Part shown: one piece after another, positions 27,001-33,000 of the stretch | Numbering within the stretch: the first letter of the stretch is position 1 | Layout of the letters: every line of letters begins with the position of its first letter | Origin: Escherichia phage P13374 | Reading direction: 5' to 3' (one strand) | Length of the DNA stretch: 60,894 nucleotides | Sequence record: NC_018846.1 | Position numbers: made by a program

Positions 27001-30000
27001 GGCGGCAGGGCAGAAGTGGTCAGCGATGCGGAGGGAACCGGAGGTAAGGCAGTGAAGCTGACCAAGGAAGCCGGTAAAAGCAGCTGGGTGCTGGAGTACG
27101 CCGCGGGCAACGGTGCGGCTCTGTTACAGAAAGGGGGGCAGATTCGCTGCCGCTTTAAGGTTTCGGGAGCGCTGGCTGCGAACCAGTATGTTATGGCGTT
27201 TTACTGGCCGGTATCTTCACTGCCACAGGGCGTTGCCCTGACCGGAGACGGGGGGAATAACCTGCTGGCAGCGTTCTACATCCAGACAGATGCAAAAGAC
27301 CTGAATGTGATGTACCACAATGCGAAAGTAGCGACAAACAACCTGAAACTGGGAACCTTTGGCGCATTTGATAACGAATGGCATATGCTGGCTTTCCGCT
27401 TTGCCGGGAATAACAGCCTTCAGGTGACGCCGGTTATTGATGGTCAGGATGGCACACCGTTCACGCTGACGCAGTCACCGGTCAGTGCATTTGCGGCGGA
27501 TAAACTGCATGTGACAGACATTACCAGGAATGCGACTTACCCGGTGCTGATTGACAGCATTGCGGTGGAAGTGAACAACGCGGATGCCGCGGCATGATAA
27601 AAAAAGCCGCCAGTTGCCTGAGACCTCTGGCGGTGTGAGATTCATGGAGAATCAAGGAAAGATACTACCACTTTCGTCATCGGCATTTTTAAATGAAAAC
27701 TGTTTACTTAGTCAACCATAACGGTAAGAAATTATGACATTTCTGAACCAGTTAATGCTGTACTTCTGTACGGTGGTCTGTGTGCTGTATCTCCTTTCGG
27801 GTGGGTACAGGGCCATGCGTGACTTCTGGCGCAGACAGATTGACAAAAGGGCCGCTGAGAAAATCAGCGCCAGTCAGTCAGCCGGAAGCAAACCCGAAGA
27901 GCCGCTCATTTAGCGGCAACTTTCTTAATCACATCTTTCGACGAGAAAATCCCATGTCAGAAATTACATCCCTGGTCACTGCTGAAGCAGTGAAGGAAGT
28001 CCTGCGCTCTGAAGAAGTCCGGAGCGCACTGAAACAGAAACTTCGCCATAACCTGGAAGCGCGTCTTGATGCAGAAGTGGATGCCATTCTGGATGAACTG
28101 CTGGGCGCACCGGCAGCTCCGGAGCCGGAAGGCATCGCGGGTGAGGGGAGTGCTTCAGATAGCGGTGACCCCACACCGGACAGCGACATGATGATGTAAG
28201 CATGCGTCAGGGACCATCGGTGTGTGCCGGTGGTCTTTTTTATTGTTGTGAGCTTCCGGATTGCGGGAGGCGGGGTATGAACCAGATGGAAAAAATCACA
28301 ACAGGTGTGTCATACACCACGTCAGCGGTGGGAACGGGCTACTGGTTCCTGCAGTTGCTGGACAGGGTTTCCCCGTCTCAGTGGGCGGCAATAGGCGTGC
28401 TGGGGAGTCTGCTGTTTGGTCTGCTGACGTACCTGACGAACCTGTATTTCAAAATCAGAGAGGACAGGCGTAAGGCGGCACGGGGAGAGTAAGCTGATGA
28501 GCAGGAAACTCCGCTATGGTTTATCGGCTGCCGTTCTGGCGCTGATTGCCGCAGGTGCTTCTGCGCCTGAAATCCTCGACCAGTTTCTGGATGAAAAGGA
28601 AGGCAACCACACCACGGCATACCGTGATGGTGTGGGTATCTGGACCATCTGCCGTGGTGCCACCCAGGTGGATGGTAAGCTTGTCGTCCCCGGCATGAAG
28701 TTGTCGAAGGAAAAATGCGACCAGGTTAACGCCATTGAACGTGATAAGGCGCTGGCATGGGTGGCGAAAAACATCAGAGTGCCACTGACCGAACCTCAGA
28801 AAGCGGGGATCGCGTCATTCTGTCCTTACAACATTGGCCCCGGTAAGTGTTTCCCGTCGACGTTTTATAAACGAATTAATGCAGGCGATCGCAGGGGAGC
28901 GTGTGAAGCGATTCGCTGGTGGATTAAGGACGGTGGCAGAGACTGCCGTATCCGCTCAAATAATTGCTACGGTCAGGTATCCCGTCGCGACCAGGAGAGT
29001 GCGCTGGCATGCTGGGGTATCGACAGGTAGCAGAATATTTTGCTGAAAAATGACGTTTGCTCACGCGGACGGATAACACGAAATCCTGCGAACTGGCAAA
29101 ATGCAAGTGAATAAAGTCAGGAAGATTGTTTCACGCTGAGGCACCGTAATGGTGTCTTTGTCATTTCTGCGCTTCGCACAAGCGTAAATAAACCAAAGAA
29201 CCTTTCAGGATGAGCCCTGGTGGATAACCGGCAGTGGTCTGGTTAACCCTCTTTGGGCTGGTTATTCCTGTGCGCAGGGTTCATCACTAAAAGGAAATAA
29301 CCGATGAATATGATGACCGTGCCGTTTCACGGCGATTCTCTTTATGTGGTTAACCATAACGGTGAGCCATACGTTCCCATGAAACCTGTCGTTGCGGGGA
29401 TGGGGCTGGCCTGGCAATCACAGTTGGCTAAGTTAAGACAGCGTTTTGCGTCAACTATAACGGAAATCGTTATGGTTGCTGAGGATGGGAAACGACGCAA
29501 TATGGTGTCCCTGCCACTTCGAAAACTTGCAGGCTGGTTACAAACCATCAATCCCAACAAAGTAAAACCCGAAATCCGCGACAAGGTAATCCAGTATCAG
29601 GAAGAGTGCGACGATGTTCTCTATGAATACTGGACGAAGGGGGGTGTCGTTAATCCCCGTCGAATGAGTGTGATGGAAGAACTCAATCAGGCCTGCGCTG
29701 ACATGAAACGGGATAAAAACATTGCCAGTGTGTTTGCTACCGGGCTGAATGAGTGGAAACAGGTTAAAGCCGCGCATGTATCAAAAATCCGCACATTGAT
29801 AAACGAAGCGAATCTGCTGATTGATTTTGTCCTGGCTGATACAGGCAAAGGGAAAATAACAAAGGCGGATTGATGGAGTGGTGGCTAATGATATCGGATA
29901 AACTCATAACGCTGGCGAAGGGCCTTTGTGTAATCGTCGGTATTTCATTTTCACTAATGCTGGTTGTTCTTTTTCTTTCCATAAACTGGATGGCGTTGAC

Positions 30001-33000
30001 TTCGGCAGGGCTGGTGGGGTGAGCATAAACCGAATGCTTTCCGCGTTTACCGTTATTCTGCTGGTGGTCTGTGGTGCGCTTAGTCTGGGGCTGAATCATT
30101 ACCGTGATAACGCCATCGCTTACAAAGAGCAGCGCGATAAAGCCACATCCATCATCGCAGATATGCAGAAGCGGCAACGTGATGTAGCAGAACTTGACGC
30201 CAGATACACAAAGGAGCTTGCTGATGCTAATGCGACTATCGAAAGTCTCCGTGCTGATGTTTCTGCTGGGCGTAAGCGCCTGCAAGTCGCCGCCACCTGT
30301 GCAAAGTCAACGACCGGAGCCAGCAGCATGGGCGATGGAGAAAGTCCAGGACTTACAGCAGATGCTGAACTCAATTATTACCGTCTCAGAAGTGGAATCG
30401 ACAAGATAACTGCGCAGGTTAACTACCTGCAGGAATACATCAGGACGCAATGCCTGAAATAATTTTTTTGCAAATCACAAAGTCAATTTAATGAGCCTCG
30501 CGATACGGGGCTTTTTTATGTCCGCAGTAAACGCGCTTCACACGCGCGACTTATGAACACAGAACCTTTCAGGATGACCCTTGAGGATGCCGGTTTGGTG
30601 ATCGGTGCCTTTCTGTGGGCCGGAATCCTGTGTGACAAGGTTCATCACTAAAAGGTGTGCACTGATGAATTATCCAACTATCGTTAACGGCATCGATTTT
30701 CGAGATCTTGTTTTTGTGACAGGCAACGAGCCGGTGACGGATACCCGAAAGGTTGCCGTAGCATTTGGCAAAGAACACAAAGATGTATTGCGGAAAACAA
30801 GAGCCGTTGTTCAACAATGCTCAAAAGAATTTGCAGAGCGCAATTTTGCGCTTTGCTATGAAAACAATGAGTTACAGAACGGTAAACCCCAGCCCATATA
30901 TCGAATGACAAAAGACGGTTGGACGATGTTGGTATTTGGTTTTACGGGGAAGGCTGCTATGACCTTTAAGGAAGCGTACATTCAGGCTTTCAACTGGATG
31001 GCTGAGCTTATTCAGCAAGGTCTGGCGAATCTGGAGGCGGAGCGCAACGCTGTAATGCTGGAGTACATGAAAGAGAAAGATGTCGCCAGTATGTCAGGTC
31101 GTTTGCTCAATCGCTGGGGCAGGGTGAAGAAGCCTCAGTTGCTGGCAAGGCTGGACAGGCTGGAGCAGCAGGGGCAGATTGCGTTACCCGGATTTGATAA
31201 AGGCATTTCAGCCTGACATAGCCATGCGCCGTATCGTCGCCGTATTCCCGCATTAACAGAGACTGCAGCCACCTTATCTGCGTGAGTGTGCGGGGATAAT
31301 CAAAAACGATGCACACCGGGTTTTCTCATTTTTCACGAGATGGGAGCGATTTCCCGCGAAGCCGCCTGTCCGGTGCGGTGGTGGAAGAAACCGGATAAAA
31401 CAACCGCATTGTGCAAATATCGATCAAATATGGTGCTGCTGTGTGAAATCTGAAAAATCACAGCGGTCATTATGCATCAGTTTTTAACACAGGACGTCAG
31501 AAAGTGACATGGCAAAGCTGGACTGGAAAAAGCTGGAGCAGGCATTCCGACGCGAACATGCCGAAACGGGAATAACATTACTGGACTGGTGCCGGAAGAA
31601 AAAGATTAATTACAACACCGCCAGAACCCGTATAAAAATGGGCAAAATCGATCATGAAATTGATCATAAAACCGATCATGAAATCGATCATGACATCTCA
31701 GATGAAGAACCCTGCAATGACGCGGGTTCCGGCGATGAAAAATGCGCAAAAAACTCTGAAAAAAACTGCGCAAATTCGGCAGAAACGAAACGGATTCGTG
31801 GTTCCCGACTTTTACCACCTTCAAACGCTTTTTCTCAGCGAAACACCCACGCCGTAAGACACCGTGGATATGCGAAGTATCTTGAGGCAGATAACCTCAT
31901 GGATGATGCGTCCGACATGGTGCTGTTCGATGAACTGGTGTTCACCCGGGCCCGCGCACTTTCAGTAACTAAGGCACTTAAAGGGATGTTCGCCGACCTG
32001 GAAGAGGCAACTGACGTGGAAACCCGCGTTGCTCTTTACGACAAAATACTCAAAGCTGAACAGGCCCTTGACCGGAATATTGCCCGTATCGAGTCAATTG
32101 AACGCTCATTGCTGACGCTGGACGTCCTGGCTGAGACAGCACCAAAACTTCGTGCTGACCGGGAAAGAATCAACGCCGCCAGAGATAAACTCAGAGCGGA
32201 AACCGATATTCTGACCAGCCAGCGTCGGGGCGTTGTTACGCCTGTCAGTGACATCGTGTCATCGCTGCATGAAATGAGTAATTCGGGGAGACTGGATGAC
32301 ATTCCGGAAGAATGAACCGCGATGTGATGAGCCGTCAGAAATGACCGAGGCTGAACAACGTCTGTTCATCATGACTAAACTGAGCAATCCCTGGTGGCGG
32401 CTCAATCATCTCTACAAAATACAGAACGAAAAAGGTGAACTGGTCACCTTCAGAATGCGACCGGCGCAGCGCCAGTTGTTCCGGAGCATGCACAATAAAA
32501 ATATTATCCTGAAAGCGCGCCAGCTGGGATTTTCCACAGCCATTGATATTTATCTTCTCGACCAGGCATTATTCATTCCGCATCTCAAATGCGGGATCGT
32601 CGCTCAGGATAAACAGGCTGCCAGTGAAATTTTCCGCACAAAAATTGCTGTACCGTTTGATCATCTCCCTGACTGGCTGAGAGCCTCATTCACCATCGTT
32701 GAACGTCGTAGCGGTGCCAGCGGTGGCTATATCCTGTTTGGTCACGGCTCGAGTATCCAGGTGGCAACCTCATTCCGTTCAGGTACGGTGCAGCGCCTGC
32801 ATATCTCAGAGCACGGCAAAATTTGCGCGAAATATCCGGCTAAGGCGAAAGAACTGCGAACCGGTACGCTTAATGCCGTCTCTGATGAATGCATTATTTT
32901 TGATGAGTCCACTGCTGAAGGCGTGGGTGGTGATTTTTACGAGATGAGTAACCGAGCACAGGAGATCACTGCATCAGGCTTATTGCTGACGGCACAGGAT

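Follow-up and report, generated by a model that had tools for sequence, protein, structure and literature searches.

A predicted Shine–Dalgarno-sequestering RNA leader with two covarying pseudoknots upstream of exchangeable late genes in phage P13374 and its relatives

The late region of Escherichia phage P13374 (sequence record NC_018846.1) contains two copies of an RNA leader, one upstream of the gene ant (29138-29303) and one upstream of rha (30493-30664). Coordinates refer to the window, the whole stretch of 60,894 nucleotides (nt) analysed here. Comparison of these leaders with their relatives shows a covarying, same-strand RNA fold that is predicted to pair the Shine–Dalgarno (SD) sequence of whichever gene follows. 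With moderate confidence, the leader is read as a translational lock, off by default, on cargo genes that lie within the late operon. The cargo comprises antirepressor-like DNA binders, KilA, Rha and Bro proteins, and homing-type nucleases, proteins that a phage would presumably want scarce or conditional. Some cargo proteins are harmful, and the late operon is very strongly transcribed.

A preliminary description of this stretch had pointed to three ordered blocks shared by the two segments, each of which precedes an antirepressor-family gene inserted in or after the lysis cassette. All three blocks are present as described. Block 1, a hairpin, reads GCGCTTCGCACAAGCG at 29169-29184 in the ant leader and GCGCTTCACACGCGCG at 30533-30548 in the rha leader. 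Block 2, AGAACCTTTCAGGATGA(G/C)CC, occupies 29197-29216 and 30561-30580, respectively. Block 3, GGTTCATCACTAAAAGG, lies at 29278-29294 and 30639-30655, ending in each case 9 nt before the ATG of the gene (29304 for ant, 30665 for rha). The 16-17-nt blocks occur twice each in the whole window. For block 2 in the form GAACCTTTCAGGATGA, there are exactly two exact occurrences, and up to three mismatches give four matches against 0.66 expected from shuffles; the corresponding figures for block 3 are two and 0.16. Chance is excluded as the source of the shared blocks. Pairwise alignment gives 76% identity over about 210 columns and reaches well past the SD, so that the similarity is not limited to the SD region. 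The Ant and Rha proteins have only their C-terminal ORF11CD3 region in common, and the upstream similarity is therefore not a by-product of gene duplication. The gene context also bears out the description: the late-region order is holin, lysozyme (28497-29030), ant, a small open reading frame (ORF), Rz, rha, terS and terL, with ant (P22_AR_N plus ORF11CD3) between the lysozyme and Rz genes and rha (Phage_pRha plus ORF11CD3) between Rz and terS. The term 'duplicated', by which the two segments had been introduced, does not hold. The copies fall into separate subtypes of a large family, and their pseudoknot sequences differ, which argues that they were acquired separately and not copied within the phage. 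The window itself is near-identical to Shiga toxin (Stx) 2a phages of the O104:H4 lineage; leader queries of 181 nt found 100% matches in the 60.9-kb genomes of phiON-2011 (ant leader) and P13353 (rha leader).

In the predicted fold of both window copies, blocks 2 and 3 form the opposite arms of a single rod of about 30 base pairs (bp), in which CCUUUCAGGAUGA(N)CC... is paired with ...GGUUCAUCACUAAAAGG. At the base of the rod, the SD AAAGG faces an anti-SD, CCUUU. The rod consists of P1 (about 19-20 bp), P2 (about 10 bp) and a small apical hairpin, P3. Fold energies for the two window leaders are -50.3 (z = -3.3) and -46.4 kcal/mol (z = -1.7) relative to dinucleotide shuffles. An initial model with a three-way junction (a CCGG.../...UCGG hairpin) was replaced once phi80-type sequences revealed the arrangement of the P2 top and P3. 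A covariance model, R1, was built from 60 type-A leaders with the structure proposed here; its search of all loci recovered every subtype and further divergent copies. On an alignment of 81 distinct leaders fitted to the R1 structure (A6), 93.4% of the rod cells are paired, against 33-53% when the 3' partners are slid by one to three columns. Changes on both sides are seen in 28 of the 31 pairs, and the observed values were reached by none of 500 shuffles, a count that is not a probability because the leader sequences are related.

The pairs between SD and anti-SD (columns 9-13 with 123-129 of A6) are 98-100% paired. P1b shows the compensatory variants GACCCUUG/CAAGGUUC, GAGCCUG/CAGGCUC, GAGCCCAG/CUGGGCUC and GGGUGAGC/GCUCACCC. 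The SD pairing itself covaries: locus L169 has the SD UAGG with CCUA, the shifted SDs of L016 and L256 remain paired, and compensatory changes keep the pairing in the divergent copies L169, L034 and L016 and in the second copy of phi80. The leader of phi80 rha is a diverged homologue with arms CCUUUCAGUAAGCGAGCCUG and CAGGCUCACUUUCUAAAAGG. P2 covaries between subtypes on A6 and is 91.5% paired on A9, an alignment of type A alone that was made blind to structure. On this comparative evidence the leader is placed among SD-sequestering elements, with its SD inside a conserved helix whose SD:anti-SD pairs are maintained by compensatory change.

The strongest evidence, drawn from structure-blind alignments, is the multi-allelic, perfectly matched variation of two further pairings, the pseudoknots PK1 and PK2; 107 distinct leaders hold about 10 PK1 and about 20 PK2 alleles. 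The 5' flank of the rod has a constant order: an intrinsic terminator (GCCUCGC...GCGGGGCUUUUUUAU), a spacer of 0-30 nt, the hairpin H0, a linker of about 10 nt and then the rod. H0, which corresponds to block 1, has the form GCGC-N6-7-GCGC, with stem variants such as GCGU/ACGC. Covariation indicates that block 1 is not a free-standing hairpin: its loop is complementary to a strand of 6-7 nt that joins P2 to P1 on the 3' side, in the internal loop of the main stem, and both strands covary through three to four pair types. PK1 alleles include UCUCAC/GUGAGA, UCACAC/GUGUGA (window rha), UCGCAC/GUGCGA (window ant, as CGCAC/GUGCG), ACGCCC/GGGCGU, UGCCC/GGGCA, CCGCA/UGCGG, CCCAC/GUGGG and GCCCA/UGGGC. 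On A7, a structure-blind MAFFT alignment of the 81 leaders, 96% of PK1 cells are paired, the central pair being UA in 36, GC in 27, AU in 10, CG in 3 and GU in 2. On A9, the value is 98.5%, with a central pair of GC in 18, AU in 8 and UA in 8.

PK2 joins the 6-8 nt directly 5' of the anti-SD to a bulge between P3 and the 3' strand of P2. In 106 of 119 leaders, its 5' strand abuts the start of P1, that is, the anti-SD, with a gap of 0 nt. Its alleles include CACAGAA/UUCUGUG (window rha), CCAAAGA/UCUUUGG (window ant), CGAGAG/CUCUCG (phi80), CUCAGAA/UUCUGAG, CCAAGAA/UUCUUGG, CCCGAG/CUCGGG, CCACAGAG/CUCUGUGG, CGCAGAG/CUCUGCG, CCACCGA/UCGGUGG and CCAUAGA/UCUAUGG. On A9, PK2 is 99.2% paired, and its covarying columns show AU 19/UA 9/CG 6, CG 28/AU 5, AU 33/GC 1 and AU 28/GU 4. 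The structure of six helices taken together is 94.2% paired on the same alignment, against 28-50% in slid controls. The longest complementary run between the two PK2 strands averages 6.4 nt for strands of the same leader and 3.5 nt for strands of different types. A candidate outer helix, formed by the region 5' of H0 with the spacer between SD and AUG, gave no signal in the same comparison (6.32 nt for own and 6.25 nt for cross pairs) and was rejected; this equality shows that the method does not itself create a signal.

The strands follow one another in the order PK2(5')-P1(5')-P2(5')-P3-PK2(3')-GG-P2(3')-PK1(3')-P1(3', with the SD). From this order of the type A-B-A'-B', in which both stems covary, P2 and PK2 are classed as a predicted H-type pseudoknot. 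The proposed assembly may be described in steps. (i) P2 and PK2 would form the H-type pseudoknot on a near-continuous 3' strand, PK2(3')-GG-P2(3'). (ii) The 5' strand of P1, about 20 nt, would become the long loop of that pseudoknot and would have to span the stacked P2 and PK2; the loop strand measures 19.7 +/- 0.8 nt, and PK2, linker and P2 together 18.5 +/- 0.8. (iii) The 3' tail bearing the SD would zip onto this pre-stretched loop to give P1. (iv) H0 would dock at the corner between P2 and P1. The outcome would be a compact, pre-organized lock that catches the SD once it has been transcribed. In the second copy of phi80, P3 is replaced by a 4-nt linker and all else is kept. The parts of the two window copies are as follows.

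29138..29168, plus strand: ant unit, intrinsic-terminator-like hairpin and T-rich tail, from a terminator scan (stem 29138-29158); the same layout is found in nearly all family members
29168..29186, plus strand: ant H0 hairpin, stem 29168-74 with 29180-86, from the fold and pair counts
29175-79, plus strand: ant H0 loop CGCAC, the 5' strand of PK1, allele CGCAC(A)/(U)GUGCG
29193..29199, plus strand: ant PK2 5' strand CCAAAGA, directly 5' of the anti-SD and complementary to UCUUUGG at 29250-29256; duplex -9.7 kcal/mol
29201..29219, plus strand: ant P1 5' arm, with anti-SD CCUUU at 29201-05, from fold and covariation
29222..29268, plus strand: ant upper part, with P2 (GGAUAACCGG / CUGGUUAUUCC), the apical P3 region and the PK2 3' strand UCUUUGG at 29250-56
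29270..29274, plus strand: ant PK1 3' strand GUGCG, within the internal loop that separates P2 and P1 on the 3' side
29275..29294, plus strand: ant P1 3' arm, with Shine–Dalgarno AAAGG at 29290-94; making SD to AUG single-stranded costs 5.7 kcal/mol in the nested model
29304..29873, plus strand: ant cargo gene (P22_AR_N plus ORF11CD3)
30493..30519, plus strand: rha unit, intrinsic terminator after Rz (stem 30493-30513 and T tract); a homologous terminator is annotated in phi80 and HK106
30532..30548, plus strand: rha H0 hairpin (CGCGC / GCGCG), loop UUCACAC at 30537-43, with the PK1 5' strand UCACAC at 30538-43
30558..30564, plus strand: rha PK2 5' strand CACAGAA, complementary to UUCUGUG at 30611-17; duplex -9.0 kcal/mol
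30565..30583, plus strand: rha P1 5' arm, with anti-SD CCUUU at 30565-69
30584..30629, plus strand: rha upper part, with P2 (AGGAUGCCGG at 30584-93 / CCGGAAUCCU at 30620-29), P3 hairpin at 30597-30609 and PK2 3' strand at 30611-17
30630..30635, plus strand: rha PK1 3' strand GUGUGA; duplex -7.1 kcal/mol
30636..30655, plus strand: rha P1 3' arm, with Shine–Dalgarno AAAGG at 30651-55; opening cost 7.8 kcal/mol
30665..31216, plus strand: rha cargo gene (Phage_pRha plus ORF11CD3)

By sequence and model matches, the window leaders belong to a large family that extends through Stx, phi80, HK- and P22-like phages and prophages of the Enterobacterales. In BLAST searches, 290 phage records contained the ant-type leader, 182 the rha type and 154 a third, phi80 type; these are phages of Escherichia, Shigella, Salmonella, Klebsiella, Enterobacter, Hafnia, Pantoea, Citrobacter and Edwardsiella. 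Pattern scanning of IMG/VR, done twice, gave at least 120 loci each time. A scan of one genome per species gave 40 loci, nearly all in Enterobacterales (Pantoea, Erwinia, Tatumella, Serratia, Yersinia, Edwardsiella, Arsenophonus, Symbiopectobacterium and others). Since the family was harvested by conserved-block patterns, its true diversity and taxonomic range are under-sampled. The rha-type leader occurs in 806 of 5426 complete E. coli genomes, at up to eight places per genome (in E. coli O157); among the matches listed, it is unannotated, and the feature beneath it is either none or the start of the cargo gene. Four loci lie outside the order: L255, L258, L271 and L274 come from a Cellvibrionaceae metagenome-assembled genome (MAG), a Halomonas, a Bacillota MAG and a Collinsella MAG, respectively. 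The three MAG copies, from unrelated phyla, score like E. coli-type copies and probably stem from contaminated bins, not from a wider natural range. The Halomonas leader, of type D, is from an isolate genome.

As a rule, the leader follows Rz and an intrinsic terminator, precedes terS and points the same way as the late genes; Klebsiella phage 2 LV-2017 has it among tail genes. The ATG is always 8-12 nt past the SD, and the cargo gene lies on the strand of the leader. The cargo families are mutually unrelated. They include KilA-N proteins (with P63C or ORF11CD3 tails), Phage_pRha, P22_AR_N, ANT/KilAC, AntA, Bro-N, HNH_3 nucleases, T5orf172/MUG113 (annotated GIY-YIG in HK106), TerB and several proteins without a Pfam hit. 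Two leaders precede cargo outside the DNA binders and nucleases: the one at L247, 5362-5468, a 491-residue protein without a Pfam hit, and the one at L034, 9613-9718, a 143-residue protein with a TerB domain. One leader variant precedes different cargo families, and one cargo family follows different variants. This is what terminator and leader would look like as a portable 5' module exchanged by recombination, as the idea of a moron boundary expects.

Both interpretations offered by the preliminary description are thus supported. The first, a shared cis-regulatory RNA leader, agrees with the pairing of block 2 with block 3, with the SD in the 3' arm and the pairing kept by compensatory changes across subtypes; its translational effect is suggested by this anatomy. 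The second, a conserved moron boundary, agrees with one variant before unrelated cargo, with one cargo behind different variants and with the terminator that nearly always precedes the leader. The element is far more elaborate, having two pseudoknots, and far more widespread than could be seen from the window.

Several copies outside the window show how leader and cargo vary. In Edwardsiella (L256, 4848-5275, and L251, 6982-7409), about 200 nt separate two leaders. All that remains behind the first is an 11-codon remnant of an AntA-type gene, so that this leader has outlived its cargo. In phi80 (L125, 2126-2680), the GTG annotated as the start of rha falls within the leader's 3' arm; the true start is likely the ATG that comes after the SD, at L125:2163. 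A second, minimal leader of phi80, without P3 (L125, 3648-3741), precedes an ORF like N15 gp59.

One alternative denies any function to the RNA. The segment would be a recombination linker, moron-boundary DNA, or the coding sequence of a small peptide, namely the 32-codon ORF at 30553-30651. Leader variants are indeed shared before unrelated cargo, this ORF extends across the rha leader, and some phage records list a hypothetical protein at that place. The product (MNTEPFRMTLEDAGLVIGAFLWAGILCDKVHH) is hydrophobic, the UAA stop overlaps the SD, and the ORF lacks conservation in the family. The compensatory changes in five helices go beyond what DNA homology alone would give and largely refute this alternative. 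Moreover, many of the core lengths of 80-87 nt are not multiples of three, and the ant and Klebsiella copies are frame-shifted. It is regarded as exceedingly improbable. A conserved upstream ORF (uORF) with coupling through its peptide was also rejected: of 120 distinct leaders, only 36 have a uORF of 15 codons or more that stops near the SD, and its start varies. A dispersed intergenic repeat, similar to the ERIC or MITE elements, was dismissed as well; there are two copies in the window, and every copy is followed at 8-12 nt by a same-strand ATG.

The favoured reading, a translational lock, would operate as follows. A structured 5' leader of about 135 nt, transcribed within the rightward late operon, would fold to bury the SD of the cargo gene. 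Cargo carried on abundant late read-through transcripts would thereby be translated hardly at all, or at a low and fixed rate. Transcription that is not antiterminated would end at the upstream terminator, which, with the lock, would provide double insulation in the lysogen. Terminator and leader together would double as the portable 5' module for exchangeable cargo. Exposing the segment from SD to AUG costs 5.7-7.8 kcal/mol in a nested model from which the pseudoknots are excluded; the duplex energies to be added are -7 to -8 kcal/mol for PK1 and -9 to -10 kcal/mol for PK2.

SD-sequestering mRNA leaders represent a known principle, and by analogy the hairpins of phage T4 and the repZ leader would be the nearest functional counterparts. 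Hairpins that mask the ribosome-binding site (RBS) before the free-standing phage genes e, soc and I-TevI of T4 and mobE of Aeh1 block translation of transcripts that read through from upstream promoters. In T4, a late promoter inside the hairpin gives transcripts that lack the 5' arm. As in T4, the SD is masked on optional or mobile genes, and homing nucleases (HNH_3, T5orf172) are among the cargo here too. Unlike these simple hairpins, the leader has two covarying pseudoknots and an upstream terminator, and no sigma-70-type promoter was found on the plus strand in 28200-31600. In the repZ/repA leader of IncI-alpha and IncB plasmids (ColIb-P9, pMU720), a pseudoknot activates translation; its action requires translation of a leader peptide that stops at the RBS hairpin, and an antisense RNA counteracts it. 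There, as in the phage leader, an upstream hairpin loop pairs with a distal sequence beside the hairpin that hides the RBS, giving a long-range pseudoknot. The phage leader differs in having no conserved uORF, and no antisense partner was found in the window. It is set apart from both analogues by its two covarying pseudoknots, its near-constant upstream terminator and its modular link to exchangeable phage genes. The C4/IsrK RNAs (P1/P7 immI, Gifsy-1) are likewise RNA elements just upstream of an antirepressor gene, on the same transcript, that control it; their fold and sequence are different.

A number of points weigh against the lock. (i) Its support is computational throughout, and the translational effect is deduced from anatomy. 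(ii) The SD lies at the base of the rod, where about 6-8 kcal/mol is predicted to expose it, and repression could be modest. (iii) No opening cue or ON state emerged from the analysis. (iv) The upstream terminator is unexplained if transcription always reads through. (v) The R1-aided alignment carries the proposed structure; in the rod, many double changes represent a few deep splits between subtypes. (vi) Members were gathered by exact block patterns, which makes the invariance of P1 within a subtype uninformative. (vii) The strand was assigned from context, namely the constant site upstream of the cargo ATG, co-orientation with the cargo and the upstream terminator; counts of G-U against A-C pairs (64 and 44), used as a test of strand, are not decisive. 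(viii) The case for both pseudoknots existing alongside the full rod is made from strand order and lengths, and PK2 could be a transient alternative structure of the nascent RNA.

The last point leads to a different account of PK2. For each window copy, the minimum free energy (MFE) structure predicted for prefixes that end after the PK2 3' strand and before the 3' arm is the PK2 helix, and the rod is the MFE structure at full length only. A kinetic gate would exploit this sequence of events: early PK2 would hold the anti-SD strand in a closed loop and delay the rod, so that ribosomes load on nascent transcripts only and the cargo is made in a brief pulse limited by the number of transcripts. 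The strong covariation of PK2 also suits such a gate. Yet PK2 and the rod have no nucleotide in common, their helix lengths fit coexistence, and a pre-organized anti-SD strand could speed capture of the SD as easily as delay it. In the maturation gene of MS2, long-distance pairing between the SD and an upstream sequence makes translation dependent on folding kinetics. MS2, whose genome is RNA and has no such pseudoknots, bears on the kinetic account only. A kinetic gate is held to be decidedly improbable.

As to what might open the proposed lock, the possibilities rank as a static attenuator without switching, a switch responsive to a factor or ligand, processing by RNase III or E and, last, a kinetic folding window. 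The second of these would be a genuine switch, in which a double-pseudoknot sensor, riboswitch-like or responsive to a protein or small RNA (sRNA), frees the SD on a cue such as late infection, co-infection or stress. The architecture is elaborate, covarying and length-constrained beyond the needs of a simple hairpin that masks an SD. Rha of phi80 and P22 blocks phage growth in hosts deficient in integration host factor (IHF), and IHF is said to regulate rha (work cited in PMC4936722). Almost all conserved nucleotides, however, lie in helices, and no conserved unpaired pocket of aptamer type is evident. There was no Rfam riboswitch match; the IHF consensus WATCAANNNNTTR, with up to one mismatch, had no match in four leaders; and no reverse-strand copy of block 2 or block 3, as expected of an antisense partner acting in trans, is present elsewhere in the window. 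A switch is considered rather unlikely. The leader recalls preQ1-II/III and SAM-II riboswitches and flavivirus exonuclease-resistant RNAs (xrRNAs), with their compact helix stack closed by two long-range pairings and, as here, an SD in a helix. It differs from them in lacking any sequence or model match and an evident ligand pocket. The host is not known to have a 5'-3' exonuclease, in contrast to the setting of xrRNAs.

In the processing account, a cut by RNase III (or RNase E) would part the anti-SD arm from the SD and so activate or stabilize the cargo mRNA. Cleavage at the RNase III sites of T7 early mRNA and of the lambda N leader can unmask an RBS. Like those sites, the leader is a long irregular hairpin with an asymmetric internal loop and lies between cistrons of a long polycistronic transcript. 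The quasi-continuous rod of about 30 bp exceeds, by prediction, the duplex length of about 20 bp or more that RNase III requires, and the 3'-side internal loop is conserved. Unlike in T7 and lambda, this loop is paired to the loop of another hairpin. PK1 would turn it into a three-helix corner, which is not the classical loop of an RNase III site, and neither PK1 nor PK2 has an obvious role in a site for an RNase. Processing is judged quite unlikely.

Further candidates were set aside. An RNA thermometer (ROSE or fourU) was rejected on predicted energies of -36 to -50 kcal/mol at 37 C and on the lack of an Rfam thermometer match. A sigma-70 promoter belonging to the leader itself, either in the gap after the terminator or inside the hairpin, was not found on the plus strand in 28200-31600, where sigma-70-type promoters alone were sought; the same result counts against a T4-type hairpin with an internal late promoter. 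A possible promoter of the form GTGACA-16-GGTAAT, which would give a leaderless mRNA, is present in some type-A copies and absent from the window rha copy, and was dropped. Control of ant by C4/IsrK was rejected, since RF01695 and RF01394 match only 13903-14090 on the minus strand and not the leaders. The loop of the C4-like RNA has only a 5-nt complement in the leader, which is at chance level. The scan of the whole window with Rfam 15 at gathering thresholds gave nine hits, none of them in 29.1-30.7 kb. At E<=10, the region 28900-30900 gave only asX2 (27 of the 70 bits needed, on the minus strand over the terminator) and BASRCI153 (12.6 of 137). No searchable paper prints the conserved blocks or describes the leader; work on phi80 and P22 from the 1990s in subscription journals lies outside this search.

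Contigs with two or three leaders allow co-resident alleles to be compared. There are 14 of these, among them the window, L016, L034, L076, L125, L186 and L256. PK1 is the same in one of 16 co-resident pairs and PK2 in none of 16, where random pairs would share alleles in 20% and 13% of cases; this deficit is not significant, and the contigs are related. Selection against pairing between copies that share a transcript or a cell may lie behind the divergent alleles in one contig. A tentative extension, possible rather than probable, would see in the leader a new class of RNA device: a ring-like, doubly pseudoknotted sensor or timer that opens on a host or phage cue, or in a folding window, and so licenses mobile 'weapon' genes. 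Co-evolving pseudoknot 'addresses' would keep co-resident copies from cross-pairing.

The leader is found in well-studied phages (phi80, the HK series, P22-like phages and Stx phages, including the O104:H4 outbreak type), yet is unannotated and absent from Rfam. It would control access to a whole class of exchangeable accessory genes with a little-understood expression logic, and its covariation-backed structure makes this logic directly testable by compensatory mutants. Antirepressor-like cargo can influence prophage induction and hence possibly the output of Shiga toxin. In the Stx phage Phi24B, an antirepressor, which may differ from the window Ant, is reported to speed derepression after induction (PMC3064807). 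The leader may also account for earlier genetic findings, namely that rha of phi80 and P22 is conditionally toxic, and represents a compact natural part for tight translational insulation.

Other RNA features were recorded elsewhere in the window. On the minus strand at 13903-14090, a C4 antisense RNA (13903-13990, 77 bits) adjoins isrK (14015-14090, 62 bits). Judged by these model matches, the pair is an antirepressor RNA control module of P1/Gifsy type that belongs to the early region and is separate from the late leaders. At 25249-25508, STnc100 (25249-25454, plus strand, 208 bits) is followed by the anti-sRNA AsxR (25456-25508, minus strand); the two adjoin each other downstream of stx2B and upstream of a 645-codon ORF like yjhS/nanS (25660-27597). 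Two matches to sRNA-Xcc1 lie on the minus strand of the early half, at 4689-4778 (65 bits) and 12984-13067 (80 bits). Three tandem tRNA genes are located at 23592-23840, upstream of the stx region.

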